DNA of 57,277 bases from a virus (taxonomy: Duplodnaviria; Caudoviricetes), in the IMG/VR virus record IMGVR_UViG_3300009169_002640, positions 1 to 57,277 of that record; one strand, 5' to 3'. A program made the position numbers and the translations under genes. The notes beneath the pieces were generated by a model, which was not told the DNA's origin, made no database searches, and was given only the letters and a program-made list of their open reading frames with translations. Of the stretch, positions 1,333 to 50,033 are shown piece after piece (within the stretch, counting starts at the first letter, position 1; every line of letters starts with the position of its first letter).

Positions 1333-1828
1333 AGGGCGGGCGATAGCGGACCTGAAGCCCCACTCCGCGAACTACCGGCGTCACCCCGAGGGACAGCTTG
1401 CAATCCTGCGGGAGAGCCTGCGCGTTCACGGGCAACAGAAGCCGGTGGTGATCACCCCCGATGGCACGATTCTCGCGGGGCATGGATTGGTGGAGGCGGC
1501 GCAGGCTGAGGGTTGGACGGAGATAACCTGCCACGTTTACGACGGGCCGTATCCCGAAGCGTTCTTAGTTGTGGACAACAGGAGCGCCGACCTCGCGGAA
1601 GACGATACTATCGCCCTCGCCTCCCTCCTCCAGTCTCTCCAGGAAGACGGGCAGTTGGAGGCGACGGGGTTTGACTCAGAGGGGCTGGCGGAACTGCTTG
1701 CGGAGATTGAGGCTGGCAATCCTGAGAACGTCACCTTCCCTGAGTATGATGAGAACCTGTCAGATTCACCAGAGGGCAAGCTGAAGCGCGCTACCTGCCC
1801 GGAATGCGGCCATGTCTTCGACCTCTAG
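1322..1828 (+). CDS. ParB/Srx N-terminal domain protein
   Basis: LKPHSANYRRH...SLRVHGQQKPVVI...ILAGHG...DNR pattern; C-terminal CPECG. Confidence 0.85.
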   Translation: MQTEGRAIADLKPHSANYRRHPEGQLAILRESLRVHGQQKPVVITPDGTILAGHGLVEAAQAEGWTEITCHVYDGPYPEAFLVVDNRSADLAEDDTIALASLLQSLQEDGQLEATGFDSEGLAELLAEIEAGNPENVTFPEYDENLSDSPEGKLKRATCPECGHVFDL

Positions 1829-3729: not shown

Positions 3730-3745
3730 GCCGCGGGAGGCGGAC

Positions 3746-5209
3746 ATGCAGGGACTTCCTGCGGCACTCACAGAGGAGGCGGTGTGCGGTGGATTCGACC
3801 AGTTTAAGGCGCGGCACTTCCGCCGCCTCTACCGGAATTGCCTAGTCGAGTTCGCCTTCGACTGCGTCTCCTGGGGGGAGGGGGAGGGGCCAACTCCCTA
3901 TCAGGAGGAGATACTCGCGACCATCCCGGCAAGGCCCCGGATCGCAGTGCGTGGGCCGCACGGTTTGGGTAAGACCGCCCTCGCCGCCCTGGTTGTGCTG
4001 CACTTCGGGCTGACGCGGGACGGCGAGGACTGGAAATGCCCGACTACCGCGTCCGCTTGGCGGCAACTAACACACTATCTCTGGCCGGAAATCCATAAGT
4101 GGTGTCGCCGCCTGCGCTGGGAGAAGGTCGGGAGGGACTCGTTTCGGGATGGCCAGGACCTGCTGCAGTTAAGCCTGAAGCTGGGCACGGGGGAGGCTTT
4201 CGCGATGGCCTCCGACCAGCCGAGCCTGCTTGAGGGGGCGCACGCAGACAGCCTGTACTACCTGTTCGACGAGGCGAAGAGCATTCCAGCGCCGATCTGG
4301 GATGCCGCCGAAGGGGCCTTCGCCTCCGGGAATTGCCAGGCCCTCGCGGTCAGTACGCCGGGGGAGCCGGTAGGCCGATTCTACGAGATTCACGCGCGGC
4401 GGCCTGGCTTTGAGGACTGGTGGGTTCGACACGTCACGCTGGAGGAGTGTATCGCCGCAGGACGGGTGTCCCGCGAGTGGGCGGAGCAGCGCAAGCGGCA
4501 GTGGGGTGAGGACTCGGCAGCCTATCAGAACCGCGTTCTGGGCGAGTTTGCCTCCAGCGAAGAGGACGGGGTCATCCCCCTCTCCTGGGTGGAATTGGCG
4601 AATGAGCGGTGGCGGTCCCTGGAGGAGTCCGGGGCCTGGGAGGAATTCAAGTGCGCCGGCGTAGACGTGGCGCGCTCCGGGCAGGACAGGACGGTGTTCG
4701 CCCTGCGGCACGGCTATGCGGTTCGCGAACTACGCCGCTACACGCGCCAGGACACGATGCAGACGACCGGGCTGGTAAGTGGCCTGCTGGCGGCCCATGG
4801 CGGCGGGGCCGTGGTAGACGTGATCGGCATCGGCGCCGGGGTAGTAGACCGGCTTCAGGAGCAGGGCCTGACGGTAACCCCGTTCAATGCTTCGGAGCGG
4901 ACTGACGCAAAGGACCATTCGGGAGAGTTGGGCTTCGTAAACAAGCGCAGCGCGGCCTGGTGGGCCCTGCGGGAACTACTGGACCCGGCCTCCGGTGAGC
5001 CGATAGCCCTGCCTCCCGATGACCTGCTCACCGGCGACCTCACCGCCCCAAAGTGGCGCGTGATGTCTGGCGGCAAGATTCAGGTCGAGTCCAAAGACGA
5101 GATCCGCAAGCGAATCGGGCGCAGCACGGATGACGGAGATGCAGTGGTAATGGCTTTCTGGGAAGAGCGAACCCCGGATTATGCCAGCGCCTATACCGTG
5201 ATGTTCTGA
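3746..5209 (+). CDS. terL: terminase large subunit
   Basis: Walker A GPHGLGKT, Walker B YLFDEA, nuclease motifs GVDVARSGQD and STDDGDA; GGAGG RBS before ATG 3746 (alternative start 3704). Confidence 0.92.
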   Translation: MQGLPAALTEEAVCGGFDQFKARHFRRLYRNCLVEFAFDCVSWGEGEGPTPYQEEILATIPARPRIAVRGPHGLGKTALAALVVLHFGLTRDGEDWKCPTTASAWRQLTHYLWPEIHKWCRRLRWEKVGRDSFRDGQDLLQLSLKLGTGEAFAMASDQPSLLEGAHADSLYYLFDEAKSIPAPIWDAAEGAFASGNCQALAVSTPGEPVGRFYEIHARRPGFEDWWVRHVTLEECIAAGRVSREWAEQRKRQWGEDSAAYQNRVLGEFASSEEDGVIPLSWVELANERWRSLEESGAWEEFKCAGVDVARSGQDRTVFALRHGYAVRELRRYTRQDTMQTTGLVSGLLAAHGGGAVVDVIGIGAGVVDRLQEQGLTVTPFNASERTDAKDHSGELGFVNKRSAAWWALRELLDPASGEPIALPPDDLLTGDLTAPKWRVMSGGKIQVESKDEIRKRIGRSTDDGDAVVMAFWEERTPDYASAYTVMF

Positions 5210-10817: not shown

Positions 10818-12926
10818 ATGGGCGACGAGATGGTGATGGTGGAGAATATCTCAGGCGTAGACCAGCACATCGGGATATGGGTGCTGAAGGCCAGGGCAAC
10901 CCAGCCGATTCCGGTGCAGATGTTGGCGCAGGCAAAGCCTTACGTGCGTATCGTATCTCCGCCCCGAGGCGACCTGCTGGCCATCTACCGCTCATTGTGC
11001 AAGCCTGGGTGCGGACACTCCCTATGCAGCCTGACGCGGGGAGTAACGGCCGCCCTGGAGCACAACGGATTCACAGTGAACCGCGCGGACTGGCGACGCC
11101 CTGACCAGCCGCAGATTGGACGTAGCCACCTCTGCAATTCGGGGACCTTCGAAGGGCCGGCCGGGAAGTTCGCGTGGCCGCACCCCGACGCTGACATCTG
11201 CGCGCGGGCGCAGGCCGACTACTTCCGGCGCAGCTTCGACGGGCATATCTGTTCGAGCGAGGCGATCCGCGCTGCCATGATCGCCTCTGGTATCCCGGAG
11301 AATCGCTGCCATGTGGTGAACGACGCGATTGACGTTGACCTCTTCACCCCGGACGGCCCGGCATTGGAGGGGTGGCCAGGGCGATTCGTGTTCCTGATGC
11401 TGGGGGCGCTGAACCCGCGGAAGGGCTTCGACCTGGCACTGGAGGCCTACGGGAAAGCCTTCACCGCAACCGATCCGGTAGTGCTGGCGCTGAAAGATTA
11501 TGACTATGGGTGGGGTCGTAGGGGATGGTGTCAAGAGCAGGTGGCGGCCTGGCAAGCCCGCCTGGGCGAAGCGGCCCCGATGGTCGAGTACGTTTACACC
11601 ACCTGGGACGAGCAGCAGATTGCGGCCGCCTATCGCCGTGCGGCGCAGCATGGTGCCTACCTCATGCCCTCGCGCTGTGAGGGGTTTGGGCTGACTGGGG
11701 CGGAGGCGATAGCGTGCGGGTGCCGCGTCGGAATGACGGGATGGAGCGGGCAGCTCGATTATGCTACCCCGGAGAACGCCACCCTCTTCGCCTACACCCT
11801 CTCGCGGAATGAGGCGAACCCACAGGCCTATGAGCGCGACGAGCAGCCGAAGTGGGCGGAGGCGAAGGTCGAGGACATCATTGCGTGGATGAGCCGGGTA
11901 GTAGTAGAACGGCCCGATCGGGAGCGACTGAGGCGGAACTCGGAGCAGGTTCGGGCGCAGTTCACCTATGAGCGGATGGCCGAGGAGTTGGCCTCCGCGC
12001 TGGGGCTGGAGAAACCGCGGGGAGGTCGCGCTACCCCCGCAACAGAGGAGGAGAGTGGCGGCGGCAGAGTCTTGCCCGGGACATCCACCGCCGCCGCTCT
12101 TCCCATTGCTGAGCATGAGACCCTGGGAATCGGGATCCCAACGCGAGGCCGGCCGGGCTACGTCGCGGCTCTCCTGGGCGGGCTATTCTGCCAGACGAAG
12201 CGGCCGGACGCGCTCTGCCTGGTGGATGATGACGGCGGCCTGGAGAAGGACTCCGCCATTGTTCACCTGCTTGCGCTCTTTAGGCGGCAGGGAACGCGCT
12301 GCGGGATCGTGCCGGGGTCGCAGAAGGGGGCTAGTCCGAATCACCAGATTGCGATGGAGTGGCTGGAGACTGATCTGGTCTTGCGGCTAGACGACGACCT
12401 CATACCTGCCTCCCCGGACTACGTTGAGAGGCTGTACCGGCTGATCTGCGGCCAGGCTGAAATTGGGGCCGTGGGCGGAACCTACCCGAAGCTGGACGAG
12501 GAGCCGCGCGACTACCGCAAGGCGCTCGGCAAGGCGGGCATGACCAATCGCATTGAGGACATGCGCGCCGGCCGGGTAGACCTTCAATTCCGCAACTGGC
12601 AGGAGGCAGGGGAGCCGGTAGAGGCTGAGCATCTCTACTCCTCTTGGATATATCGGCGCGCCTACCTGGAGGCGGTAGGGGGATTCCCGGACTGCTACTC
12701 GCGCTTCGGGCAGCGTGAGGAGACGGATGCGAGCGTGCGACTATGCCTGCTTGGAGGCTACAAGCTACTGGTGGACCCCGGCGCGAAGGCCTGGCACTTT
12801 CTGGCGCAGGGAGGTCGCCGACCGGAACAGCGCGCGCTGCTGGCGCGGCAGGATGTGCGGACGTTTGAGGGGCGGCTGAAAGAGTGGAGGCATGAACTCC
12901 TGAAAGGAACGGGCAACGGGCAATGA
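10818..12926 (+). CDS. two-domain glycosyltransferase (GT4-like + GT2-like)
   Basis: PRKGFD and PSRCEGFGL..AEAIACG (GT4); IGIPTRGR, VDD, RLDDD and VGGF..EETD (GT2). Confidence 0.9.
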   Translation: MGDEMVMVENISGVDQHIGIWVLKARATQPIPVQMLAQAKPYVRIVSPPRGDLLAIYRSLCKPGCGHSLCSLTRGVTAALEHNGFTVNRADWRRPDQPQIGRSHLCNSGTFEGPAGKFAWPHPDADICARAQADYFRRSFDGHICSSEAIRAAMIASGIPENRCHVVNDAIDVDLFTPDGPALEGWPGRFVFLMLGALNPRKGFDLALEAYGKAFTATDPVVLALKDYDYGWGRRGWCQEQVAAWQARLGEAAPMVEYVYTTWDEQQIAAAYRRAAQHGAYLMPSRCEGFGLTGAEAIACGCRVGMTGWSGQLDYATPENATLFAYTLSRNEANPQAYERDEQPKWAEAKVEDIIAWMSRVVVERPDRERLRRNSEQVRAQFTYERMAEELASALGLEKPRGGRATPATEEESGGGRVLPGTSTAAALPIAEHETLGIGIPTRGRPGYVAALLGGLFCQTKRPDALCLVDDDGGLEKDSAIVHLLALFRRQGTRCGIVPGSQKGASPNHQIAMEWLETDLVLRLDDDLIPASPDYVERLYRLICGQAEIGAVGGTYPKLDEEPRDYRKALGKAGMTNRIEDMRAGRVDLQFRNWQEAGEPVEAEHLYSSWIYRRAYLEAVGGFPDCYSRFGQREETDASVRLCLLGGYKLLVDPGAKAWHFLAQGGRRPEQRALLARQDVRTFEGRLKEWRHELLKGTGNGQ

Positions 12927-13717
12927 GTCACAAGGTATTTAACAACGCAGAAGAGCTCAGGGCGGCTATCTCCAGTGGCAGCATTGATAAGGGAACCTTT
13001 ACGCTCGGCGATGGTTACTGGGACGCCTGGGACGCTGAACTCGACCGGCAGAATGGCAAGGACCGCCTTCCCCTGTTAGTGCAAGCGCAGTATGAACCCA
13101 TCAGGGTGGAGGTGGCAGAGGCCCTAGGTGAGGGGGCGACACAAGAGCAGGTAGAGGTGGAGGCGCGGCGTTGGCAAGAAGTGTGGGGGGCACACCTGCT
13201 CTATTGGTACGCCCGGTGCGTGCACGGACGAGAGTGCTCCGCGTACGGAGAGGCGCACGGAAACGGGGCCGAGGAGGCATATCGCCGCGCCTCGCTTCTT
13301 CGCTACGGCGACGCGGCCCTGCGGGATATTCCTCCCGGCACGTTGGTTTCGTGCCGAAGGCAGGGGCGGCAAAGGACACTTTATCTCGTCGGGCCGACCA
13401 CCGAAGACGGCCTAACCGAACTGACTGTGGCTATCCAGGCGTCATACGCATACTGCGAGCCAGTCGGTTACGTCTACAAGGAGGAAGGCTGGCTCCGCAT
13501 TTTCGAGCCAGCGACGGCGGAGTCACTTACCGAGGCGGTGACGATACATGCCCGCCAAGAAAGAACAGAAAGGGAGCGTAGGCAGCGCCAGATGGACTTA
13601 GAGCGCGAGCGGCGAAGGCAGGCCGATGCTATCGGGCGAGACGCGGCAGCCAACCCAAGGCCCGTCACGCTAGGGCGCCTCATAAGATGGTTCTTCGGGG
13701 GTGGGGGCGCGCGATGA
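12923..13717 (+). CDS. hypothetical protein
   Basis: ATGA-coupled at both ends; no recognised motif. Confidence 0.6.
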   Translation: MSHKVFNNAEELRAAISSGSIDKGTFTLGDGYWDAWDAELDRQNGKDRLPLLVQAQYEPIRVEVAEALGEGATQEQVEVEARRWQEVWGAHLLYWYARCVHGRECSAYGEAHGNGAEEAYRRASLLRYGDAALRDIPPGTLVSCRRQGRQRTLYLVGPTTEDGLTELTVAIQASYAYCEPVGYVYKEEGWLRIFEPATAESLTEAVTIHARQERTERERRQRQMDLERERRRQADAIGRDAAANPRPVTLGRLIRWFFGGGGAR

Positions 13718-14700
13718 TCCTGATGATCGGACTCGACGCCTACCCCTATCAGTGGCGCTCCCTGCTGGAAGAGCGGGATTACCGCGTCGCAGAATTGCAC
13801 TCCCCCCATGCCATGAGCGCGCCGGCCTGGACCTCGATCATGACAGGCCTGAACGCGGAGACGCATGGGGTGCGCGGGATGTATGCCAAGGATTGGACCG
13901 CGGAGGCGGCGGCGTGCCGACCCCGCTACCTCTGGGATCATCTCACGGCCGCGGACCTGGAGAGCGTGGTGGTGAATCTCCCTTTCTCCTACCCGCCCGC
14001 GCTGGTACGGCGCCTCTTGGTATGCGGCTATCCTGCGCTGCCTGAGCATTTCACCTTTCCCCGTCACAGGCAGACAGACTGGGAGTTCGGCGAGCTCGAC
14101 CTGTACAATCGCCGCCGTGGTCTCACCCATCAGGAGGTGCTGGACCTAGATGAGAAGGCGATCCTGGAGGCGCATCGGGAGGCGCGGTGGGCGCTTGCAC
14201 ACCGCTTCCTGCTGGAGATTGGGCGGGGCAAGCCCGACTTCGCGATGTTCTGCCTCACCGATCTGGACCGCCTCTCCCACTATGCCTCCGGGGCGATGCG
14301 TGCGGAAGAAGTGCGGAATGCGGTGCTGACTGACATTCTGGAACTGGTGGATCGGCTGGAAGTACAGATTGCCCCGGAGTGGTTGCTCCTAGTGTCGGAT
14401 CACGGAGTAGACCTGCGCAAGCCGACGCGCGAGGACGGCTGGCATGTCGCGCATGGGCCAGACCTCAAAGAGAGTAAGCGAGGCGTATTCGCGTGGAGAC
14501 GCGCGGACGGGGCGCACCTGGACCGCCAGAACGTAGCACAGAAGCTGCGGCTGGAGGACATCACCCCTACTGTCCTCTCGCTCCTAGACGCAGCTCCGAT
14601 CTCGCGGGTCGAGGGGAGGCCGGCGCTGTTCCCGGTCGCGCCACTAGACGAGCAGGCGCAGATTCAAGAGGCGCTGAGAGGAATGGGCTATGTCGAATAG
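13714..14700 (+). CDS. alkaline phosphatase / nucleotide pyrophosphatase superfamily enzyme
   Basis: MIGLDA, SAPAWTSIMTG, DRLSH, SDHG, DITPT, and a C-terminal LRGMGY. Confidence 0.85.
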   Translation: MILMIGLDAYPYQWRSLLEERDYRVAELHSPHAMSAPAWTSIMTGLNAETHGVRGMYAKDWTAEAAACRPRYLWDHLTAADLESVVVNLPFSYPPALVRRLLVCGYPALPEHFTFPRHRQTDWEFGELDLYNRRRGLTHQEVLDLDEKAILEAHREARWALAHRFLLEIGRGKPDFAMFCLTDLDRLSHYASGAMRAEEVRNAVLTDILELVDRLEVQIAPEWLLLVSDHGVDLRKPTREDGWHVAHGPDLKESKRGVFAWRRADGAHLDRQNVAQKLRLEDITPTVLSLLDAAPISRVEGRPALFPVAPLDEQAQIQEALRGMGYVE

Positions 14701-15577
14701 GCGGTTTCGGCCGGAGCGCAGCATGGGCGACCTGTGGGATGACCTGGCGCAAGAGAACGCGCGGTCAGCGATTCTTTACCACGCGACTCCGGAGTGGTTT
14801 GAGGAGAGCGGTAGGCGCGACGCGGAGGGGCTTTACCGGATCATGGCTCGCCTCCATGTCACCCGCCCCTGCCAGGACGCGGGCAACCGGACCATCCTCG
14901 ACCTCGGCGGCGGGATTGGGCGCATTGCGCTCTATCTCTCTCCGGTCGCCGGTCGTTACTACCTACTCGACGTGAGCCGGGAGATGCTTCGGCAGGCACG
15001 GGCGTGGCTAGACGGGCAGGAGAACGTCTCTCTTGTGCAGGGCGACGGGTTCACGCTCGCGGGCGTCCCCGACGACTCTGTGGATTTCGCTTTCTCCATT
15101 ATGGTCTTCCAGCATATGGACCGCGAGGTGTGTGTGCGCTACCTGATGGACCTGCGGCGGGTATTGGCGCAGCATGGCTACGCTTACCTGGGCGTTCCGA
15201 TGATGGAGTACCCGACGCGCTTTGCGGAGGCCGAGCGGGGGGACTGGCCGGCGAACTTCCGGCGCTGGCACCCAGGCGAGTTCCTGGAGGTATGCGCGCG
15301 CCTGGGCTACGCGATTCTGGAGGCAGACTGCGACCGCGGGCTGTTTCTCTTGCAGCGCGGTGCTGACGCGAATCTGACATGGGAGAACCGGGCAAATGAA
15401 AGGGCGACGACGGCGAGTGACAGGGCGGATCGTGCTGGAGGAGACGACGCAGGGCTGGGTAATGCGGACCCAGCGGCGACGCCTGGGGCTGTGGAGGACG
15501 GCGCAGCGGGCGGAGTATGCGGGGCTGGAGGGCTGCCTGTTGGTGCTGAGTCAGGCCTATGCGACCGCGACGCGTAA
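14690..15577 (+). CDS. class I SAM-dependent methyltransferase
   Basis: ILDLGGGIGR, DVSREML, SVDFAFS..VFQH. Confidence 0.85.
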   Translation: MSNRRFRPERSMGDLWDDLAQENARSAILYHATPEWFEESGRRDAEGLYRIMARLHVTRPCQDAGNRTILDLGGGIGRIALYLSPVAGRYYLLDVSREMLRQARAWLDGQENVSLVQGDGFTLAGVPDDSVDFAFSIMVFQHMDREVCVRYLMDLRRVLAQHGYAYLGVPMMEYPTRFAEAERGDWPANFRRWHPGEFLEVCARLGYAILEADCDRGLFLLQRGADANLTWENRANERATTASDRADRAGGDDAGLGNADPAATPGAVEDGAAGGVCGAGGLPVGAESGLCDRDA

Positions 15578-15656
15578 CGTGAAGGGCGTCCTGGTAGGGC
15601 GCAAGCTGCGGCGCCGGACCGCGCAGCAGATTGTCGCGAGGCTGCTGCGGCCATGA
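15396..15656 (+). CDS. small basic hypothetical protein (overlaps the previous ORF)
   Basis: GGAG RBS before ATG 15396; its stop overlaps the next ATG. Confidence 0.4.
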   Translation: MKGRRRRVTGRIVLEETTQGWVMRTQRRRLGLWRTAQRAEYAGLEGCLLVLSQAYATATRNVKGVLVGRKLRRRTAQQIVARLLRP

Positions 15657-16369
15657 TGACCTACTGGACTGAGGCAATGACGCAGAACCGGATTGCCCAA
15701 CTGAAGGCCGATGCCGGACAGTTCTTTGGCTTGGCGCGCGAGCAAGTGGAGGCCTGTATCGCGGTGAGTCCGGGGCAGGCGACAATCTGGAACTGGCTGC
15801 ACTGGGCGTGTTGTGAATGGGAGTATGGCTGGCCGCAGAGCATCGCGCAAGCCTGCTCCGACTTCGGGATTCGCGAGGTATTGGACTTCGGTTGCGGGGT
15901 GGGGGAAGTGGGCTTGCACCTCGCGGCGCAACTTGACGTTCCGGTGACGTTTTGTGACCAGCCGGGGCGGTCGCGGGAGTTTGTAGCCTGGCGAATAGGG
16001 CGCACCCTCGACGGGCAGATGCGCGGGCCGATAGACCCCGAGGAGGTATGGCGCGAGGGGCTATCCTGGGATGTGGTCTTGTGCCTGGAGGTGCTGGAGC
16101 ACATCGGTGCCGCGCCGATGGTGCTGAGGAAGCTGCTGGCGAGGACGCGAACTGCGTTCTGCATTTCGGGTGTGAGCGGGCGGCCGCCGACTGATAAGGA
16201 CCCCCTGCACGTCTATCGCGATAGCCTGTTGCCGGTGCTGGAGCGAGAAGGTTGGGCGCTGGTGAGGGGCGGCGGAACGCCGTGGTGGTTCATGCGCAAG
16301 GGGGAGGCGAAGCGGCGGGGCTTGGAGGTGTTGGGGGCAGACGGAAGAGGAAAGGAAACGGGCACGTGA
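15653..16369 (+). CDS. class I SAM-dependent methyltransferase
   Basis: VLDFGCGVG, WDVVLCLEVLEHI. Confidence 0.85.
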   Translation: MMTYWTEAMTQNRIAQLKADAGQFFGLAREQVEACIAVSPGQATIWNWLHWACCEWEYGWPQSIAQACSDFGIREVLDFGCGVGEVGLHLAAQLDVPVTFCDQPGRSREFVAWRIGRTLDGQMRGPIDPEEVWREGLSWDVVLCLEVLEHIGAAPMVLRKLLARTRTAFCISGVSGRPPTDKDPLHVYRDSLLPVLEREGWALVRGGGTPWWFMRKGEAKRRGLEVLGADGRGKETGT

Positions 16370-17370
16370 CCCTCCATCACATAGCTTGGTTCAAACGGAC
16401 GCCTCCCGACAATCATCCGGGCGGCGTTCCTCTTTTCGGGGACTATCTCCGGCGCGTCCTTGGCGCGAGGCTCTGGTCCTGGTCAGACTACCCGAATCGC
16501 GGGGCAGTAGACGAGCCGGAGGCGGCGCGGCTGCTGGGGGAGTATCTGTCGGTGCATCTCCTGTGTCCCGACACGGATGATGATATCGTGATCGCTGATG
16601 GATTTTGGGCGCGGGGGATACTTACCGACCATCACAATTTCGGCAGGATCATCACCGTCGCCCACGGCACATGGCGCGGGATCGCCCGGGCCTTCGGGTC
16701 CGCGCAGGCCGCCCGCCTCGGCGATATTCAGGCAGTCGAGTATGCCCGCCTGCCCGTGGTCGCGGTAAGTGAGTCGGTGGCGCAGGAACTACGCGACCTC
16801 TACGGCGTGGAACCGGCCGCGGTGATCCGCAACGGCGTGGACACGGAGGAGTTCCGCCCGCGGGAGAAGGCGCCGCGGACGCGCCCGGTGATTATCTACC
16901 CGTCCGACGCGAAGACCAAGGGCGGCGATATCGTGGCAGCCCTGCGCGCTCGGCGGCCCGACTGGGAGTTTCGGCGAATCGGCGCGGAGATCGGCGCGGA
17001 GGCGGAGGCGATAGCGCAGGGAGATGTCTACCTGCACCCCTCGCGCTATGAGGGCTGCTCCTATGCGGTCCTCGAAGCCCTCGCCTGTGGGCTGCCGGTG
17101 GTGGGCAGCGGCGTGGGGATGCTGGCGAACGGAGCTCCCGATCAGACGCGCCGGGATGATTCCTGGGGGATAGTCTGTGCGCCAGGAGTGTCGCTGCAAA
17201 CCTGGGAGCTGTCACTGGAAGAGGTATTGGCGAGGCAGAGAGAGGCCTCGCTGAATGCCCACGCCTGGGCCGTCGAGCATGGTTCCCTGACCCGATGGGA
17301 GCGCGAGTGGCGTTCCTTCCTCCAGGGCGTGCCAGTTTACGCTGGAGCGCTACGTCCAAGGAGCGCCTGA
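16366..17370 (+). CDS. GT4-family glycosyltransferase
   Basis: VAVSESV, VIRNGVD, PSRYEGCSYAVLEALACGLPVV. Confidence 0.9.
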   Translation: MTLHHIAWFKRTPPDNHPGGVPLFGDYLRRVLGARLWSWSDYPNRGAVDEPEAARLLGEYLSVHLLCPDTDDDIVIADGFWARGILTDHHNFGRIITVAHGTWRGIARAFGSAQAARLGDIQAVEYARLPVVAVSESVAQELRDLYGVEPAAVIRNGVDTEEFRPREKAPRTRPVIIYPSDAKTKGGDIVAALRARRPDWEFRRIGAEIGAEAEAIAQGDVYLHPSRYEGCSYAVLEALACGLPVVGSGVGMLANGAPDQTRRDDSWGIVCAPGVSLQTWELSLEEVLARQREASLNAHAWAVEHGSLTRWEREWRSFLQGVPVYAGALRPRSA

Positions 17371-38888: not shown

Positions 38889-39731
38889 TCACACGAACAA
38901 CCCCGGCAATTCGCCCTGCTCGTCATAATCAACCCACTCATCCAACTCCTCATCAAATCGCCTCTCCGCCTCACGGAACTGCGGGAAGCGCGGAGGGTAT
39001 GGTCTGTCTCGGCTACACCACCAGTCGTACAGGTCGTCCGGCCCCGTGAACCGCTTGTAGATTTCGCGGTCCTCGCCTAGCTTATCCGCCCACATCTTAT
39101 GTAGGGCGCGACGCACATTCTCCCAAATGCGCGGCCAGCGGGCGATACTCTTGGCGACCCTGTTCTCGAAGGGACAGCACACGCACCCGATGCGGTGCCA
39201 ACCCTCACCGTAAAGCGATGGGTGGGGTAATTTTTCGGCGTGAATGAACTCCCACACTTCCGTCTCCGTCCAATCACGAATCGGGTGGAGCATCCGGCCT
39301 CCGGTGCGGCGGCACGTCTCCACCTGTCCGCGCTTCGCCCGCGAGGGGCTCTCCTCGGCGCGCACCCCAGTTAGGATGATCGCCCGACCACGCCCTCCTC
39401 CCTCCTTCAATTCATCGCAGCACCAGCGGTTTCGACGCGTTGGCACTCCCCGCCGCGCAACGTGCCAGTAGAAGGTATGAGCGGGATGCTCCCACCTCAC
39501 GGTGGGGTACTCTGTCCGCATGAATCGGCACACCTCCGGCGGGTCAATCGTCGTCACCGAGTAATGAGCGTCGAACTTCACTCCAGCCATCTCCGCGAGG
39601 CGATGCAGTACGATGCTGTCTTTACCGCCAGAAAAGGCAAGGTAGTAGCCCTCCTCTGGCTCCCAATGGCGCAGGAGGGCAATGGATATATCGAGGCGTG
39701 ACTTGCCTTGTAGAAGATCAAGCTGACTCAT
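38889..39731 (-). CDS. PAPS reductase family protein
   Basis: AFSGGKDS, RWCC..LK, TGVRAEES..R, HPI.DW, RIGCVCCP. Confidence 0.9.
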   Translation of the reverse strand: MSQLDLLQGKSRLDISIALLRHWEPEEGYYLAFSGGKDSIVLHRLAEMAGVKFDAHYSVTTIDPPEVCRFMRTEYPTVRWEHPAHTFYWHVARRGVPTRRNRWCCDELKEGGGRGRAIILTGVRAEESPSRAKRGQVETCRRTGGRMLHPIRDWTETEVWEFIHAEKLPHPSLYGEGWHRIGCVCCPFENRVAKSIARWPRIWENVRRALHKMWADKLGEDREIYKRFTGPDDLYDWWCSRDRPYPPRFPQFREAERRFDEELDEWVDYDEQGELPGLFV

Positions 39732-40138
39732 TCGGTCGCGGCCTCCGCCGCCGTAAGTTCTATCCGACAGCCCGGAGCCTCTCCCGCCAGGGCATACCGC
39801 TTGCGCGCCACCAGTTCCACGACTTGCTGATCTGTCGCCAGGAGTGCGGGGACCAGGCTATCCAAAGTCCCCTTGATGACGTTATCCAGGTCCGGCTTCT
39901 TGACGTGGGGAATCTCCCGCGTCTTGGGCACGCCCGATACCCGGCGCAGACGAAACTCCATGACAACGCGCGTGGGGCCGCTCAGTGAACCATGCTCTCG
40001 CGCCGCTTCAATCCCTGCCCAGTAGACCCGCTCGTGCCAAGCCTCCTTGGGGGAGTGTACGCGGATCCCCTCGCCGACGCGATAGGCGCGTGGTCGGGCC
40101 TGCGGCTTCGGTTCCCCTGGCACGTCAAGCACGATCAT
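39728..40138 (-). CDS. rusA: RusA-family Holliday junction resolvase
   Basis: PKPQARPR, KPDLDNVIKGTLDSL...DQQVV...K.Y. Confidence 0.85.
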   Translation of the reverse strand: MIVLDVPGEPKPQARPRAYRVGEGIRVHSPKEAWHERVYWAGIEAAREHGSLSGPTRVVMEFRLRRVSGVPKTREIPHVKKPDLDNVIKGTLDSLVPALLATDQQVVELVARKRYALAGEAPGCRIELTAAEAATE

Positions 40139-40353
40139 TGCGCCTTCTTCCCCGCCTCATACGCGGCGTTCGCTCCCGCAGTCAGGAACTGCCACCACGC
40201 CGTGTTATGTCGCTTGTGGTAATTCCGCAACGCCATCTCCAGTCGGTTCCACACCATGCGCCCCAGTGGGTTCGGGTCATGCGCCCAGAGCCATGTTACG
40301 GGCAGGTCCAGCGAGTAGACGAGGCGGGTCAACGTCCTGCGGTATAGCTTCAT
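40135..40353 (-). CDS. hypothetical protein
   Basis: Coupled small ORF. Confidence 0.5.
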   Translation of the reverse strand: MKLYRRTLTRLVYSLDLPVTWLWAHDPNPLGRMVWNRLEMALRNYHKRHNTAWWQFLTAGANAAYEAGKKAQ

Positions 40354-40661
40354 TACGCCCTCAGCGCTAGGTTTGGACGGTCCTCAACGAACTTCTCGCC
40401 GCCGTCCACGTCGCGCACCTTCCATCCTGCTTCCTGGCGGCTGATGATTCCGGCGTTGACCAGCACCCGTTCCAGGATCGCGCATTGCTCGCGCAGTTGG
40501 CATAACTCCCGCCAGATCGCCTGGTTTGCTTGGTCGGCGGGGCTGTACGCTGCCTTCACTTCGCATGACTCCCTGTCCGCGTTGTGTTCCTCCGCAAGCG
40601 TCCGTAGCCTCGCTCTCAGTTGTCCTTGCTGCCGTCTCGCCTTCCAGTTCTCAAACATCAT
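40353..40661 (-). CDS. hypothetical protein
   Basis: GGAGG RBS before ATG 40661. Confidence 0.5.
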   Translation of the reverse strand: MMFENWKARRQQGQLRARLRTLAEEHNADRESCEVKAAYSPADQANQAIWRELCQLREQCAILERVLVNAGIISRQEAGWKVRDVDGGEKFVEDRPNLALRA

Positions 40662-40814
40662 CGTCCTCCATTTCCTTTTCTTCGGCACATTGAGGGCAGA
40701 ATGGCCCCCCGTAATCGAAAGTTGGCACCTGACACGACAAACACAGGTGAGCGCCACAACGGCGGCAGTTGGCGTCATTCCCGCAATCGGCGAACCCGCC
40801 GCAAACGTCGCACC

Positions 40815-41006
40815 TCATTGCGCCTCCCTCCCCGCCTCATACGCGGCGCTGAGGTTCGCGTCTGCATCGGCGGCCCATTTCTGGATCGCCCCTTCGATCA
40901 CCGCCCGCGCGTCGAGCAGGTCCGCCATCCCCGCGCTATAGGGCTGGCCCTCGCGGTCGAGCGCGGTCACAGCCTCAGTGCCAAGGTTCACTTGTATGAT
41001 GGTCAT
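40815..41006 (-). CDS. hypothetical protein
   Basis: GGAGG RBS; coupled ORF. Confidence 0.5.
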   Translation of the reverse strand: MTIIQVNLGTEAVTALDREGQPYSAGMADLLDARAVIEGAIQKWAADADANLSAAYEAGREAQ

Positions 41007-41872
41007 CCGTTCACCTCCAGCAGCCTTCCTTGCGCCGGGCTATCCGTGCGCTCTACTCTGCCCGCGTCGAATTCCTCCAGGGGAATCTTCCCCCCGTGGT
41101 AGATGTGTCGCGCCCAGTAGCGGCAGAAGCGGCGAAGAGTTCCGTCCGTCCATCCCGGCCCCACATAGGAGTTCTTTATCAGTGAGTCAAGGGGCTGATA
41201 CCGCATAGGATTGGGTAACACGCCTGCATCATGGAGAGTCTGACACCGATAGCCTGCGTCCTCCGGGGAATCATTGAAGCCCACCAGAACGTAGCAGCGC
41301 AGGTCGCGAAATCCGTGTTTCTTTGCCACCTCTATTGCCTTCATCACCGCCGACTCGTAGCGCATATCATCCCAGGCGAAGCGCGGGTGCATGGGTAATT
41401 CGGAGAGACGCGCCGCTTTCGCGTCCGTGAAGAGGCTAGCCTGTAACCCCTGGTTGAAATCTACAAACGGCAATGCCTTGAGGCGGTCTACCGCGCGGTT
41501 GAAATGCGCCGCGCTGGTTGCGAGGAAATTGTCATCACAGACGCAAGGGGCGACATCCCACTCCGCTAGCTCTACAAGGGGACGATGCTCGTTCACACAG
41601 AAGCGGCAGGCATTCGGGCAGCCCTGCGAGGTTCGCGTGGCAAGCGGGTTGTGCAGGCGCAGGGGGACAATCGGGGCGGCATCCTGCCCAATCTCACAGA
41701 CGCTCGCGAGGTAGTCAGGGAGGAGTTCCACCGCGGGACCGCCAGCGACCACGCGCCCCTTCGTGGCATCAGCGATTCGCCGCGCCTCCGGTAGCAGCCA
41801 CGTGAAGGGGACGCTCAGGTAGGTCGTTCCTCCCATGCGCCACTGCTTTATGCCCTTGTGCCACGCGTACAT
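41003..41872 (-). CDS. radical SAM protein
   Basis: RTSQGCPNACRFC (CxxxCxxC), DDNF, VDFNQG, YVLVGF. Confidence 0.88.
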   Translation of the reverse strand: MYAWHKGIKQWRMGGTTYLSVPFTWLLPEARRIADATKGRVVAGGPAVELLPDYLASVCEIGQDAAPIVPLRLHNPLATRTSQGCPNACRFCVNEHRPLVELAEWDVAPCVCDDNFLATSAAHFNRAVDRLKALPFVDFNQGLQASLFTDAKAARLSELPMHPRFAWDDMRYESAVMKAIEVAKKHGFRDLRCYVLVGFNDSPEDAGYRCQTLHDAGVLPNPMRYQPLDSLIKNSYVGPGWTDGTLRRFCRYWARHIYHGGKIPLEEFDAGRVERTDSPAQGRLLEVNG

Positions 41873-42666
41873 TAGATGCTCTCCAGCAGCCTTCCTTGCG
41901 CCCGCGCCCGCCGCAGGCGTTCCTCGATCAACTTCGCGTAGACCGGCGAGAGTTCGCAGCCAGCAAACATCCTGCCCAGGTTATGCGCGGCTACTCCTGT
42001 GCTGCCCGATCCTGCGAAAGGGTCCAATACCATATCCCCAGGCCAGGAGTAGAGCTTAATCAACCTGCCCGCGAGCTCTACGGGGAACGCCGCGGGGTGA
42101 GTTCTATTGGTCTCCGGGTTGACGCGCCACAGGTTAGAGGTTCCGAAGGTAAACTCGGAAGAGCAAAGATCGGATTTCGCCCCTCGCGGGTTTGGCAGAT
42201 CGAAGCGCCCTTTGCTGAACACCAGGATAGATTCTTGGTGGTCTCGCAGGCATGGATTGGAGGGGCTGCACCACGTTCCCCAGGCGGTGGAGTTCTTCTG
42301 TGCCGCCCCCTTATCCCAGATGATTCCGCCGCGCAGGAGTAGCCCCGCCTGCACACCAAGCAGCGTGTAGAACGCCTCTAGGGGATATGCGGGGGAACGC
42401 CCGATGTAGCTTGCGACGTTGATCGCTAACCTCCCGCCTTCACAAAGCACGCGAGGAATCTCTGCCATCCACAAGCGCGCCCAGTCCTCATACTCCGGCC
42501 AGGGGCGCTGATCGCAGATGCCTTCCCCGTAATCAATCCCCGCGTTGTAGGGCGGAGAGGTAACGCATATCTGGGCGTATCCCCCTGGAAGGGATCGCAG
42601 CCACGGGATGCAGTCCCCACAGTGGAGGCCGAGGAAGTCGCGGTCGGTGAGGGCGGGGGCGGTCAC
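41872..42666 (-). CDS. N4-cytosine/N6-adenine DNA methyltransferase (beta class)
   Basis: TSPPY precedes HPAAFP and VLDPFAGSGST. Confidence 0.92.
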   Translation of the reverse strand: MTAPALTDRDFLGLHCGDCIPWLRSLPGGYAQICVTSPPYNAGIDYGEGICDQRPWPEYEDWARLWMAEIPRVLCEGGRLAINVASYIGRSPAYPLEAFYTLLGVQAGLLLRGGIIWDKGAAQKNSTAWGTWCSPSNPCLRDHQESILVFSKGRFDLPNPRGAKSDLCSSEFTFGTSNLWRVNPETNRTHPAAFPVELAGRLIKLYSWPGDMVLDPFAGSGSTGVAAHNLGRMFAGCELSPVYAKLIEERLRRARAQGRLLESI

Positions 42667-45842: not shown

Positions 45843-46601
45843 CTATCGTATTCCTCGTCGCTTCTGCACCGCGATGCAGAGCGCGTTCCAGTTGCTCTCG
45901 AACAGCGACCAGTTTGCCGAGGACTTGTCCCCGCGAATCCGGTGGTCGAAGAATTCGTCAACCAAGTCCTTGAAGTCGTGGATATCATAGAGCAGGTGGC
46001 CAGAATCATCCGTTTCAGCCTCGCGCTCCGCCAGAAATCCAGCCGCGCGCCCGAAGGGCATGACGGGCTTGGGTAGGTTGGTGTGCTGCCTGAGCCGGAA
46101 GTAGTAGTACCGCAAAGCCCACTGGCTCGGCGGCAGGTCCGTTTCTGCCGGCGAGGGGAATGCGTTAGCATTCCCTACATTGGCAACGGCAACGGCAACG
46201 GCAACGGCACGACCTAACTTTTCGGAATTTCCTCCCGAAGACTTCACAAGATGCTTCTGAGTTTTTTCCGATAACTTCTCAAGAATATCGGGAGGGGGGA
46301 GGGGGGAGCGCGGCTTCGAGTTGTAGCTCATCTTCTGCCAGTCTTGCCAGTTGATGAAGACGTAGTATTCGCCTCCATCGGCGGAGTAGGAGGCCAGCAC
46401 CTCGGCTTCCTCCAGCATCAGGAGTCGGTCACGCACCGCGAACTCGTCCAGCCCGAGGTGCTTTCCGATCACCTCCGGCCTCGCTGGGAACAGCCCATAG
46501 TTGTCGCAGTAAGCGGTCAGGCAATAGAAGAACACGTCCCGCGTCGCGCTGTCCCACGGCTTGTTGTAGATCTTGTGCCCGTCAACAATTCGCCTTGCCA
46601 T
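45843..46601 (-). CDS. probable phage replication initiator
   Basis: MARR...L..YCDNYG...L.E.....Y..DG..Y..F.NW..WQ N-terminal domain followed by a low-complexity linker. Confidence 0.7.
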   Translation of the reverse strand: MARRIVDGHKIYNKPWDSATRDVFFYCLTAYCDNYGLFPARPEVIGKHLGLDEFAVRDRLLMLEEAEVLASYSADGGEYYVFINWQDWQKMSYNSKPRSPLPPPDILEKLSEKTQKHLVKSSGGNSEKLGRAVAVAVAVANVGNANAFPSPAETDLPPSQWALRYYYFRLRQHTNLPKPVMPFGRAAGFLAEREAETDDSGHLLYDIHDFKDLVDEFFDHRIRGDKSSANWSLFESNWNALCIAVQKRRGIR

Positions 46602-46619
46602 TCCCTCGCCTCTCTAGCC

Positions 46620-46841
46620 CTACTTCAGTGATCCGCACCGCAGGCACAGGCGGACCCGTACCTCTCGCGCGAGCCCCCGTGCTTCTGCCAGGGTCATCTC
46701 CTCGCACATCCTGGCTCGGCATACCTCAGTTAAACACTCCCGGTCTTCGTGGAGCGTCTCCGGCTGCCGGGATTGAGGGCTCCAGTAGTACCGCTTCCGC
46801 CTCAAGTCACTCGGATTCAGTCCCTCTCGCATTTCTCTCAC
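46620..46841 (-). CDS. small hypothetical protein
   Basis: GGAGG RBS; CLRC motif. Confidence 0.5.
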   Translation of the reverse strand: MREMREGLNPSDLRRKRYYWSPQSRQPETLHEDRECLTEVCRARMCEEMTLAEARGLAREVRVRLCLRCGSLK

Positions 46842-46845
46842 CTCC

Positions 46846-47019
46846 CTTCCTAGTCGAGCCTCGCCTAGAACGCCAGCCCGTGCCGAGATTCCGGCTTGTG
46901 CCTAGTTTTGCCTTGTTCGCATTGCCGATCCTGTATGCGCCTTGCCGTGTCACGCCCCGGACGCCATGCCTAGCCGGTTCCTTCCAAGCAATGCCTAGCC
47001 CGTCCTAGCCAAGGCTGCC
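46846..47019 (-). repeat. pentamer-periodic GGN-NN array B (putative guide-like ncRNA)
   Basis: Minus strand: GGC A GCC TT GGC TA GGA CG GGC TA GGC AT TGC TT GGA AG GAA CC GGC TA GGC AT GGC G TCC GG GGC GT GAC AC GGC AA GGC ... Confidence 0.75.
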
Positions 47020-47544
47020 GCTGTCGCCCAACGCCTTATCCAGCGCGGGCCAGTTCACGATCTCCTCCAGATTCTGCAAGCGCCCGTACTTGCGCCTGAA
47101 GGCTTGCAGTTCACGCAACGCCTGCGCCAGCATCTGCACCGAGAGGTCAGGAGTTCCCCGAACGATGTTGAGGGGAACGTACACCCGCTCCTCTTCATCC
47201 TCCGTACCCGCGCCGTCTTGGACGTTCACGAAGAAGCGTACCGGTTCTGACCGCTCCCCCTCCTCGTTGCGCGTAATGACGGTGATGCTCGCCATCATGT
47301 TTCGGGCCTCGCGCAGTCGGTACAGCCGTGCCGCCTCCGTGTCATCCCAGGTGAAGGCGTCGTGGAGGGGACTCCTGGCCCTCCGCGCCGTGGCGACGAT
47401 GTTTTCCGGGGTGAGTCTCACGCCGCCGGTGTAGAGGCGGTAGAGTTCCGCCCCCCATCGGGCCGCTTGCTCCGGGGAGACGCGGCTGCCTGCCGCCGCT
47501 AGGAAGCGCATAGCCTCTTCCGTCCCTACGGGGGCTGTACTCAC
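47005..47544 (-). CDS. hypothetical protein, partner of the RAMP-like gene
   Basis: LTPENIV..AR...SPLH..FTWDD.EAA..YRL..AR; its start overlaps the upstream gene's stop. Confidence 0.75.
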   Translation of the reverse strand: MSTAPVGTEEAMRFLAAAGSRVSPEQAARWGAELYRLYTGGVRLTPENIVATARRARSPLHDAFTWDDTEAARLYRLREARNMMASITVITRNEEGERSEPVRFFVNVQDGAGTEDEEERVYVPLNIVRGTPDLSVQMLAQALRELQAFRRKYGRLQNLEEIVNWPALDKALGDSGSLG

Positions 47545-48299
47545 GAGATAGCTCCCATCTTCCGGGCGATGTCAGACGCCCTGGAGAGAGTGGTCGTCAC
47601 GTCGGGGAGGCGGCGGTAGCGGGGGAGTTCGGAAACGGGAACTTGGCGGGCCTCCGCGATCTCCCACCTGCCCCAGGTGTCGCCCGACTTCTCCGGTCTG
47701 TTCTCGCCCACGCCGATCAGCGTTCCGGCGATGTCGAACAGGTTGAGAAGCTGCTCCAGCGTCATGATGTGCGGGTAGTATTCGACTCCTACCTCACACC
47801 GCCAGTCCTGATACTCCGGGCGGTAGGTGAGGTAGACGGTCCCCGTCTCCAGCCTCACCGCGTCCTCTCTCGCTTCGACGCGGGAACAGGTGATTGGAAC
47901 CACGTCCCCGCTCACAAAGAACTGCCCGCGAGCGCGGGACTTGAACAGTCCTGTGCCGTGAGCCGCCGCCGACACCGCCGCCTTCTTGAAGGCGATGGAG
48001 GGGAACCCGTATCTCCCCTCGGTGATGGGGAGGGACTCATTTCCCTCAACGTGATAGTGCGCCCCCGCGATCTCCTGGGCGATCTTCTCCGGGGTGCGGG
48101 CGTCCTTCTTCGCCTTGGTCGCCGTGCCGCCCTGCTTGTCGCTGATAGCCTGCTTCGCGAACTCAGAGAACTTGTGAACTACCAGTGGGGTTACGCCGCG
48201 CAGCGTGATAATCACGCCGCGCCTTTCGAGCGCCGGCAACTGCACTTCCGTTTGCGTCTCCGTCGGTACTGCTGCTTTCTCTCTTGCCACCTTGCTCAT
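47541..48299 (-). CDS. RAMP/Cas7-like protein
   Basis: ITLRGVTPLVVH, YGFPSIAFKKAA, YRPEY..W and a Gly-rich loop IGVGENRP....WGRWEI. Confidence 0.7.
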   Translation of the reverse strand: MSKVAREKAAVPTETQTEVQLPALERRGVIITLRGVTPLVVHKFSEFAKQAISDKQGGTATKAKKDARTPEKIAQEIAGAHYHVEGNESLPITEGRYGFPSIAFKKAAVSAAAHGTGLFKSRARGQFFVSGDVVPITCSRVEAREDAVRLETGTVYLTYRPEYQDWRCEVGVEYYPHIMTLEQLLNLFDIAGTLIGVGENRPEKSGDTWGRWEIAEARQVPVSELPRYRRLPDVTTTLSRASDIARKMGAIS

Positions 48300-48335
48300 C
48301 TCCTCTTTCCTTACGGCTTACTCGCCGTGATTTGT

Positions 48336-48553
48336 ACGCCTTGCTAGGCCCAGCTTTGCCAGCCCTTGCCTCTCCGCGTCCGCCATGCCAGTCCACACCG
48401 CGCCTATCCAGGCCCGGTCCTGCTTTGCCTCGTCTGCCTTGCCGGTCCCCGCCGTTCCCTTCCAGTCCCCGACCCGCCTGTCCATGCCCGGCCCAGTTCG
48501 CCATGCCTGTCCTAGCCCGTCCACACCAAGCCTTTCCTAGCCAAGTCTGCCAT
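48336..48553 (-). repeat. pentamer-periodic GGN-NN array A (putative guide-like ncRNA), four units
   Basis: About 40 GGC/GGA/GGT-like triplets alternating with variable dinucleotides; the phase resets at ATGGCAGAC, ATGGCGAAC, AAGGCAGAC and ATGGCGGAC. Confidence 0.85.
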
Positions 48554-48634
48554 GTCCCTTACTTCACGCGCCCAGGCGTCGCGATCTGGTGGTAGGGGTT
48601 CAGGTTGCGGAGGCGGAGGGCGCGGGCGATCATG

Positions 48635-49618
48635 TCAATCGCCCTTTTCCAGATAGGCGTCGCTTACGATCTTCAGTTGTAGGCGGCCGATAACCTCCGA
48701 TTCCCGGTCGGGCAGCGGCTTGACGACAATGCCCTCGCGCGGGTGATTAGCTTCAGGCCATAGCGATGCGCCATCCGAGAGCGCAAGCAGTTCCGCCAGA
48801 TTGAACTCTCCCCGGTATACTTCAGGAACCCAGCGAATCCCATATGGCGCGGTGCGGTCGCGTGCCGAGTCGTGCGGCCACCAATTCCCCCTCTCGTACA
48901 CGTCGAAGGCCGCGAAGAAGATGTCATTCCCGGGGACGGCACCATAGCGGAGGCTCTGAACTTTGCCGAACACCTCTCCGTAGAGAACCACGTCGGAATG
49001 TGCGCGACAGAACGCCTCGATTCCGTGGTGACGTTCGAGCGCCTGCCACCAGAGATTGATTCCGCTCGGCCGCTTCCACTCTCCGCGGGAGCCGCAGTAC
49101 ATGCGACTCTCAGATGCCGACCAGACAAAGCGCGCGTTGGCCCCATGTATCTTTTCGGTGGCGACGACGGGTTCGCCGGGTATGAACAAGTCGCAGTATC
49201 GGCGCAGGTTTTCTACGTCATATTTGCTCGCGTAGATCATCGGAGGGGCGGACTCTGCCTCGCCTCCCGTTCCTGTTCCCTGGAGGGGAGGTTCGTAGTG
49301 AATTACCCCTAGCGTCTCCGCTACATCATCACCAATAGAGCTGCCGTCCGGGGCCGCCACTAGCAGGCCCTGGGAGATAGTCCCGCGGAACTTGCGTACA
49401 CGAATGCGGCGGTCTTTCTCCCGCTCTCCTAGGAACGCGTACTCAGGCGTAGCTGGCACCACGGAATCGGGCTGAATGTATGCGCCCGCCGTTACGCCAT
49501 TCCAATCTGCCGTTCGCACTACCACTTGCCAGCCAAATACCCTTACAATGCTGAGGCTGTCTGCGTTCGGATGTGGCTCTAGCACCACAGGCACAACGTC
49601 TACTCTATGACTGCTCAT
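48635..49618 (-). CDS. RNA ligase (Rnl2 / DRB0094-like)
   Basis: N-terminal PHPNAD.L OB-like domain, EKIHGAN motif I, YGEVFG, AFD, REGIVVK, LK. Confidence 0.88.
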   Translation of the reverse strand: MSSHRVDVVPVVLEPHPNADSLSIVRVFGWQVVVRTADWNGVTAGAYIQPDSVVPATPEYAFLGEREKDRRIRVRKFRGTISQGLLVAAPDGSSIGDDVAETLGVIHYEPPLQGTGTGGEAESAPPMIYASKYDVENLRRYCDLFIPGEPVVATEKIHGANARFVWSASESRMYCGSRGEWKRPSGINLWWQALERHHGIEAFCRAHSDVVLYGEVFGKVQSLRYGAVPGNDIFFAAFDVYERGNWWPHDSARDRTAPYGIRWVPEVYRGEFNLAELLALSDGASLWPEANHPREGIVVKPLPDRESEVIGRLQLKIVSDAYLEKGD

Positions 49619-49643
49619 TAACTCCTCCCTTCATCCTTCATAG

Positions 49644-50033
49644 TCAGAACAGTTCCCCCTGCGCGCCGATCTCCTCATACCTCACGCCGTCGCCGGTGAC
49701 GACGCGGCGCAGCCCTTCGATCTGCTGTTCGGTGCGCTCCAGGTGGGGGGCGAGGGCCGCGCGGTGGTCGGATTCGGGCGGCAGGACCAACCGGTAGCGG
49801 TACTCGTCGCGCCCTGGAATGGGTTCGCCAGGAATGTCGCCACCGAGGAGCCGAAGGGCGGCGCGCAGTTGGGCGATAGCCCCGTCGTGTGACCACCCCC
49901 AAACCCCGAACGCCTGGTGAAGCTGAGTCGCCGTCACCCAGTCTCCGTTTGCCGCGAGTAGGCGGTCAAGGACGCGCCGCTTCTTGCTGCCCGGTTTGGG
50001 GGCGACGGCGGCGTAGAGGTCGGGGGCGTTCAC
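49644..50033 (-). CDS. winged-helix-like DNA-binding protein
   Basis: RVLDRLL..GDWVT..QL......IAQLR..L....I.....YRL. Confidence 0.5.
   Translation of the reverse strand: MNAPDLYAAVAPKPGSKKRRVLDRLLAANGDWVTATQLHQAFGVWGWSHDGAIAQLRAALRLLGGDIPGEPIPGRDEYRYRLVLPPESDHRAALAPHLERTEQQIEGLRRVVTGDGVRYEEIGAQGELF

Follow-up and report, generated by a model that had tools for sequence, protein, structure and literature searches.

A VIPR locus with abutting guide modules in a sediment provirus, and a candidate target for one of its guides

What do two small overlapping genes do that lie, on the minus strand of a phage genome, between tracts in which GG recurs every five nucleotides? The genes and tracts occupy positions 46,846 to 48,553 of the IMG/VR virus record IMGVR_UViG_3300009169_002640 (Duplodnaviria; Caudoviricetes), which was analysed at its full length of 57,277 nucleotides and is referred to here as the window. 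An earlier note, made from the sequence alone, took the locus for a minimal RNA-guided system built around a RAMP/Cas7-like protein, and likened it to recently described viral 'VIPR' systems with GGY/NN units. Systems of this kind are indeed in print (PMC13142463): VIPR, for Viral Interference Programmable Repeat, is the subject of three 2026 preprints (PMC13142463, 10.64898/2026.04.26.720927 and 10.64898/2026.10.15.759431), and the system itself is therefore not new. We think, with a probability of about 90%, that the locus is the VIPR system of a complete provirus, that its guides are modular, that one of them (A2) is directed against genes for HGGxSTG-domain proteins, and that its likely role is the silencing of rivals.

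According to PMC13142463, phages carry VIPR as two components, the small RAMP protein Vipr and the product of an accessory gene called vap; RNAs with 9-16 copies of a YNNGG repeat flank the loci. Pairing with double-stranded DNA is reported to take place through the variable NN bases, and each unit skips one base of the target, usually at a codon wobble position. Binding silences transcription, and the natural targets are competing phages and satellites. The same preprint mentions seven VIPR types and array variants that include 'staggered arrays', and allows for 'a related consensus'. For the Vipr protein of Escherichia phage SUSP1, 10.64898/2026.04.26.720927 lists H17, R138, D177, W178 and R179 as the contacts to GGY, with W178 stacking on G2, and states that purines are excluded at the third base. 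The first descriptions of VIPR date from 2026, and so far the SUSP1 and P. fulva clades are the ones with experimental work.

The features of the locus in the window are the following, in transcription order.

48336..48553, minus strand: vrRNA array A, four GGNNN guide modules with one-base register slips between them, from periodicity scans and slip marks
48499..48547, minus strand: module A1, 49 nt; degenerate first unit GACTT, eight GGNNN units, 4-nt unit GGCG
48435..48498, minus strand: module A2, 64 nt; first unit AACTG, 11 units, 4-nt unit GGCA
48381..48434, minus strand: module A3, 54 nt; first unit GACGA, nine units (two degenerate), 4-nt unit GGCG
48337..48380, minus strand: module A4, 44 nt; first unit GACGC, seven units (two degenerate), then GGCG
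47541..48299, minus strand: vipr, 252 amino acids, predicted RAMP (Cas7-like) guide-binding protein, from homology and fold
47005..47544, minus strand: vap, 179 amino acids, putative accessory protein; start overlaps the vipr stop (GTGA)
47015-46962, minus strand: module B1, 54 nt, two units degenerate; preceded by the start mark GGCA at 47019-47016
46846..46961, minus strand: degenerate rest of array B, with weak period-5 remnants into the ribosome-binding site of the next gene

The sequence and its open reading frames (ORFs) bear out the order that had been proposed, namely array A (48553-48336), a 252-residue ORF (48299-47541), a coupled 179-residue ORF (47544-47005) and array B (47019-46846). 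The GTG start of the second ORF overlaps the TGA stop of the first as GTGA, and the start of array B overlaps the vap stop codon. The 12-mer GGACGGGCTAGG, which the earlier note had reported from both arrays, is indeed present in both of them. What looks like a last 'unit' in array B, GGAGG, is the ribosome-binding site of the gene that follows. The stretch that separates array A from the vipr ribosome-binding site contains a small hairpin (ACGGC-GAGTAA-GCCGT, 48313-48328, minus strand), which could be a processing or boundary element. No Rfam family was found in the locus.

The 252-residue protein matches the solved 'SUSP1 Vipr protein' (36pp_D) with an E-value of 1.4e-5 over query residues 148-203, a stretch that spans the thumb and the glycine-rich loop (phmmer against PDB sequences), and the Vipr of a SUSP1-like Shigella phage with a BLASTP E-value of 7e-11. 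It belongs to phrog_4652 (E 1e-19), a PHROG of unknown function, and no Pfam family was found for it. A profile built on 15 homologues from a word-indexed search retrieved 6891 cluster representatives at E <= 0.001. The locus adds an uncultivated, high-G+C sediment prophage example to a large subfamily that includes mycobacteriophages, to whose proteins the window Vipr is 33-35% identical. The closest available relative, in locus L001, shares 51% identity and uses GGY units; three close proteins (P0003-P0005) are 44-49% identical. In genome contigs, a single-protein search found no close relative, and a narrower alignment led to 29 loci, all with at most 41% identity.

The predicted structure agrees with the sequence comparison. 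The AlphaFold (AF2) model of Vipr has a predicted local distance difference test (pLDDT) score of 83.4, and its best Foldseek matches are Csm3 and type VII Cas7, at E 4.6e-7 and probability 1.0. The top rows of VIA-align, which is independent of Foldseek, are all CRISPR RAMPs of the Csm3, Cmr4 and Cas7 types (Z from 10.5 to about 6). Together with the homology to SUSP1 Vipr, these comparisons support the RAMP/Cas7-like assignment. When residues are mapped via an alignment with a SUSP1-like Vipr, SUSP1 H17, R138 and R179 align with H42, R160 and R201 of the window protein, which are identical and invariant in the family, and D177 aligns with E199. The conserved loop reads G192..G196-V-G-E-N-R-P..G206..G210. 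A C-terminal extension of about 35 residues (residues 215-252, window 47541-47645, minus strand) with a predicted helix at 236-247 is found only in the window protein and its four closest relatives.

The suggestion that the second gene is a partner of the first is upheld by its conservation. In an iterative search of the ORFs of 109 related loci that were fetched for comparison (80 viral and 29 genome loci), the vap family is located downstream of vipr in 103. The window Vap falls into phrog_15946 (E 2.5e-17) and is homologous to gp58 of mycobacteriophage Quico (E 3e-13), which is encoded directly downstream of the Quico Vipr homologue. No similarity to the vap of the SUSP1-like phage could be detected (BLASTP E 1.2), and neither a Pfam family nor a PDB sequence match was found for Vap. 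Its model is confident (pLDDT 88.7), and folds are matched weakly, with a best Foldseek E-value of 0.25 and VIA-align Z scores of at most 6.6 to winged-helix-like domains and a helical hairpin. Because these Z scores lie below the reliable level of the tool, a DNA-binding role of Vap is only a weak suggestion from the model.

With 64% G+C in the window, it may be asked whether the five-base pattern is a matter of chance or composition in G+C-rich intergenic DNA, or whether it is the coding sequence of two ORFs of 68 and 113 amino acids (48318-48524 and 48163-48504, minus strand) that overlap array A, one of which is called by a naive gene caller based on third-position G+C. A 5-nt period is, however, not a codon period. 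Moreover, a scan of both strands of the window for at least eight GG in nine steps of 5 nt has a sole hit, at 48434-48547 on the minus strand, and 20 Markov shuffles yield 0 sites. If at least eight GG in 10 steps are required, only three clusters in array A and one in array B (46961-47010) are found, against 0 sites in 50 shuffles of the window. The GG autocorrelation has its maxima at lags 5 and 10 in arrays A and B alike.

The related loci point in the same direction. Of the 80 viral loci, 55 reach at least eight GG in nine steps on the vipr strand; on the opposite strand none of the 80 does. Runs of at least five consecutive GGNNN units accompany vipr on the same strand in 85 of all 109 loci, versus 2 of 109 on the other strand (363 versus 2 runs), and period-5 arrays near vipr occur also in loci of only 39-48% G+C. 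Such arrays, which the earlier note proposed to look for beside homologues, thus accompany most of them. Both the shuffles and the arrays of the related loci contradict an origin by chance, composition or coding, to which we give practically no credence, and the 68- and 113-residue ORFs are by-products of the G-rich periodic sequence.

The arrays of the relatives also reveal a grammar. In 2552 family units, the third base is C in 1616, T in 728, A in 119 and G in 89 cases, so that a pyrimidine is present in 2344 of 2552, matching the published GGY. The unit GGCAG accounts for 168 of the 363 terminal units of runs, versus 81 of 2189 internal ones, and the sequence that follows it is GYNN GG again; the boundary is therefore a 4-nt unit, GGCA, that shifts the register by one base. 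This slip mark (GGCA followed by GGY) occurs 297 times on the vipr strand of the related loci and twice on the other strand. From one mark to the next the distance is 5n+4 nt in 110 of 160 cases, with 49, 54, 59, 64 and 44 nt as the commonest values. Mycobacteriophage Quico has such head-to-tail modules with 4-nt slip units, whereas the SUSP1-like locus L190 has separate guides with long tails of 40-60 nt.

In the window, array A has register slips at 48551, 48502, 48438, 48384 and 48340, and array B has them at 47019 and 46965. Their spacings of 49, 64, 54 and 44 nt in array A and of 54 nt in array B are the lengths that the family prefers, and correspond to 9, 12, 10, 8 and 10 five-base units per module, when the first unit is counted even if degenerate. 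A conserved 40-60 nt tail repeated within the locus was not found; the modules abut, with the 4-nt unit between them. The locus belongs to the subfamily of VIPR systems with head-to-tail guides that is also represented in mycobacteriophages. With the 'staggered array' loci (named in PMC13142463, and represented by Quico and most of the 109 loci) it has in common the Vipr subfamily, the vap family and modules of 5n+4 nt closed by a 4-nt unit. It differs from them in the details of the slip. The family slip is GGCA followed by GGY, but in the window the units after the slips have lost the GG (GAC, AAC, GAC, GAC, GCC and TCC); as the 4-nt unit, GGCG and GGCA are equally frequent there. Units with GGA are also about five times commoner in the window than in this family.

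Against what could the guides be directed? A candidate answer comes from module A2, whose NN string is TG CG AT CA GG GG CT AG AC GG CC AA. It was decoded with the published one-base-skip rule into a pattern of 22 fixed bases, with the first unit, TG, left out. The pattern has 37 exact matches in metagenome contigs (L194-L230), and all 37 lie in one reading frame on the peptide R[IM]HGGLSTGPK, and the bases that are skipped all fall on codon wobble positions. None of the 12 skipped positions is constant across the matches, which comprise 28 distinct 39-mers from loci of 40-69% G+C (0.40 to 0.69). The unsearched TG of the first unit fits 36 of the 37 matches, where it is part of a TGY codon for cysteine, and the A predicted by the final 4-nt unit is present in 29 of 37. 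The full motif is thus CR[IM]HGGLSTGPK, in the conserved context ...CGAKTRxGxxCxxPAMxNGRC.... The proposal of a gapped code spelled by the NN positions is therefore supported for one guide, which yields a coherent in-frame target when one base is skipped per unit.

The target proteins form a family. Eight of eight tested carry the NCBIfam domain NF041373, HGG_STG (HGGxSTG), with E-values of 7e-13 to 2e-17, and they have no Pfam family except for one with an added helix-turn-helix. Members of this uncharacterised HGGxSTG family share the invariant core N-G-R-C-R-x-H-G-G-L-S-T-G-P-K, which follows a Cys-rich stretch, and the term 'HGGxSTG' was not found in the literature searched. There is no HGGxSTG gene in the window. 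In IMG/VR, six contigs (L231-L236) encode the target motif and match A2 at 19-22 of 24 positions. In five of the six, the genes for the large terminase and the portal follow directly after the HGGxSTG gene, and two HGGxSTG ORFs of these contigs match a small-terminase PHROG. Since HGGxSTG genes occupy the position of the small terminase in phage contigs, the likely role of the locus is the silencing of competing phages or mobile elements. The target motif family is present in only three named phage records, and the small terminase of the window is not similar to a terminase-like ORF beside one of the A2 targets. A2 thus offers a specific candidate for a natural target, the invariant motif of the HGGxSTG-domain genes.

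Other searches were less productive. The A2, A1 and A3 patterns each have 0 exact matches in viral contigs. For A1, with the NN string TT TA AA TT GT CG TA CA AT, an extended pattern gave two matches in contigs of 27-29% G+C, which were judged to be due to chance. The other modules match the 43 A2 target loci at chance level, and the same is true for the guides of the relatives when compared with the window or with the A2 target loci. With up to three mismatches, A2 has 0 matches in five genomes. With up to two mismatches, it has matches in 2 of 401 genomes of the phylum of genome G001, both on the target motif, and 0 for a reversed control; these two say little about the host.

By homology with the SUSP1 system, the locus might operate as follows. 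The arrays would be transcribed in the sense of the vipr and vap genes, and each 5-nt unit would be bound by one Vipr protomer, with the GG and the third base sequestered and the two variable bases displayed. The resulting Vipr filament would read double-stranded DNA, skipping one target base per unit, and transcription would be blocked at the bound DNA, presumably with assistance from Vap. The guides would be short modules of 8-12 units, arranged head to tail with a one-base slip between them, and not separate long-tailed RNAs. A2 would be aimed at the most conserved motif of HGGxSTG-domain genes, whose products are putatively DNA-binding.

A working complex of Vipr and guides could conceivably serve another role, either the regulation of genes of the phage or its host, or the targeting of RNA in the manner of type III Cas7. 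The closest solved folds, Csm3 and Cmr4, are RNA-targeting proteins, and a candidate target is available for A2 only among the five modules. However, no guide matches the phage genome above the level of shuffled guides, whether 0, 1 or 2 bases are skipped. A2 has the same sense as the target mRNA and is hence unable to pair with that RNA; it could therefore pair only with the template strand of the DNA, which is consistent with DNA targeting as published. For the characterised relatives, PMC13142463 reports binding to double-stranded DNA. We consider a role of this kind very improbable.

Several observations weigh against the interpretation of the locus as a VIPR system that silences rivals by way of A2. 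Only one of the five modules has a candidate target, and the scans of viral contigs yielded no credible match for A1 or A3. The chance of any exact match to A2 is about 0.1-0.2, by rough arithmetic on an assumed collection of about 10^12 bases; on equally rough arithmetic, the reading frame and the unsearched flanking bases cut this estimate well over tenfold. The contigs with perfect A2 matches were examined within flanks of at most 1 kb, where the 21 downstream ORFs include one that is small-terminase-like, four in PHROGs of unknown function and 16 without a match. With 1 of 21 terminase-like in such short flanks, the phage nature of the perfect-match elements is not established. No sigma-70-like promoter was found within 46500-49800, and for this reason the arrays may be transcribed together with the surrounding operon. 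SUSP1 W178 corresponds to N200 in the window Vipr and its closest relatives, and to W or M in others. The frequent GGA triplets pointed out in the earlier note are real, with 9 of 23 units (39%) in the strict runs, a share that conflicts with the purine exclusion at the third base of SUSP1 Vipr. Finally, array B is mostly degenerate. Of the two periodic arrays originally described, array A stands, as do the first ~54 nt of array B, which are well formed; in the remainder, past 46961, many units lack GG.

Some of these observations would be expected of a decaying VIPR relic, in which the guides erode and silencing has been lost. Beyond the degeneration of array B past its first module, several units in A2-A4 and B1 are without GG, the 39% of GGA in the strict runs compares with about 8% of purines at the third base in the family, and the family slip mark GGCA|GGY is altered. 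Yet both the vipr and the vap ORF are intact and keep the residues that are invariant in the family, and the module lengths still obey the 5n+4 spacing. The most telling point is A2 itself, in which five of 11 units are GGA and one is a degenerate GTC. Despite these, all of its NN pairs match a conserved target, which would be unexpected of drift. We therefore regard decay as improbable, if somewhat less so than another role for an intact complex.

Returning to an active VIPR system, the combination of common GGA units in A2 with NN bases that are all on target argues that the window Vipr tolerates A at the third base. It may be, then, that this protein reads a relaxed scaffold of GG followed by A or C, and that A2 is a 'protein-motif guide' that disarms a whole family of rivals, a proposal that we put forward tentatively and at slightly less than even odds. 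Because the skipped bases are wobble bases, one guide of 12 units matches CR[IM]HGGLSTGPK in at least 28 sequences that range from 40 to 69% G+C. If this were true, a single guide would disarm a family of rival elements and not one genome. If the GGA units work, they would widen the known repeat code, which would be relevant to the reprogramming of Vipr proteins. Three features make the locus distinctive: the candidate target of A2, a large proportion of GGA units and a slip mark that departs from that of the family.

Among the characterised systems, the locus is best compared with type II VIPR, as found in Escherichia phage SUSP1 and a Pseudomonas fulva prophage. The two share a homologous Vipr and a two-gene vipr-vap phage operon, arrays on the same strand to either side, whose 5-nt units have a constant GG and a variable NN, and guide lengths that are within or near the published 9-16 units. 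They are also alike in a coding match with one-base skips at wobble positions and in a likely target on other mobile elements. In contrast to type II VIPR, the window has a Vap without detectable similarity to the SUSP1-like vap, and guides that abut with a one-base slip in place of a structured 3' tail (pseudoknot) of 40-60 nt. Moreover, the third base is A in 39% of the strict-run units, W178 is replaced by N200, and Vipr has 252 instead of 193-202 amino acids.

The resemblance to the Cas7, Csm3 and Cmr4 proteins of Class 1 CRISPR-Cas systems lies in the RRM-based RAMP fold with its glycine-rich loop and thumb hairpin, and, for the window by homology, in the binding of one protomer per fixed step of the guide RNA. 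In VIPR each step covers 5 nt, of which three are hidden, whereas in Class 1 it is 6 nt with one base flipped. A PADLOC scan of the 62 ORFs of the window gave zero matches to models of Cas proteins, and the PHROG annotation is likewise without cas genes. A repeat-spacer array was not found in the window either, where Tandem Repeats Finder reported five short tandem repeats only. The locus, which is viral and not cellular, thus lacks what would define a Class 1 CRISPR-Cas system, namely a repeat-spacer array with Cas1/Cas2 or other cas genes, in agreement with the original description of a system without either.

The VIPR locus is carried by a temperate, siphovirus-like and complete provirus. 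In IMG/VR the window makes up an entire provirus record, with a CheckV completeness of 100%, and it originates from freshwater sediment metagenomes, i.e. from an uncultivated phage. Contigs from two DNA metagenome runs are identical to it, with zero variants. Genes for terminase, portal, a protease-capsid fusion, tape measure and endolysin are located on the plus strand, and the annotation of head, tail, terminase and lysis genes places the VIPR locus in a virus or provirus. A long block on the minus strand contains genes for an SbcCD-like nuclease, an RNA ligase, the VIPR locus, a replication initiator, methyltransferases and RusA. Two of the genes deserve a separate entry.

8097-10730, plus strand: protease-capsid fusion, 877-residue ORF; head-maturation protease domain at residues 104-231, major head protein domain at residues 621-853
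48635-49618, minus strand: RNA ligase gene; Pfam RNA_ligase (2e-23) and an OB-fold domain

The RNA ligase gene ends 82 nt upstream of array A, with both on the minus strand. In the related locus L001, an upstream array is absent and a near-consensus promoter (TTGACA-17-TATAAT) is located just upstream of vipr; the downstream array extends over about 1 kb, and GGCAG, with TCGS after it, closes many of its modules (L001 regions 1793-1825 and 3100-4110). The phage of the window also encodes a ParB-like gene, two DNA methyltransferases, and PAPS-reductase-like and radical SAM genes (window 1238-2825, 38889-42666 and 10818-17370), and, within the same regions, two glycosyltransferase-like genes that are part of the structural module.

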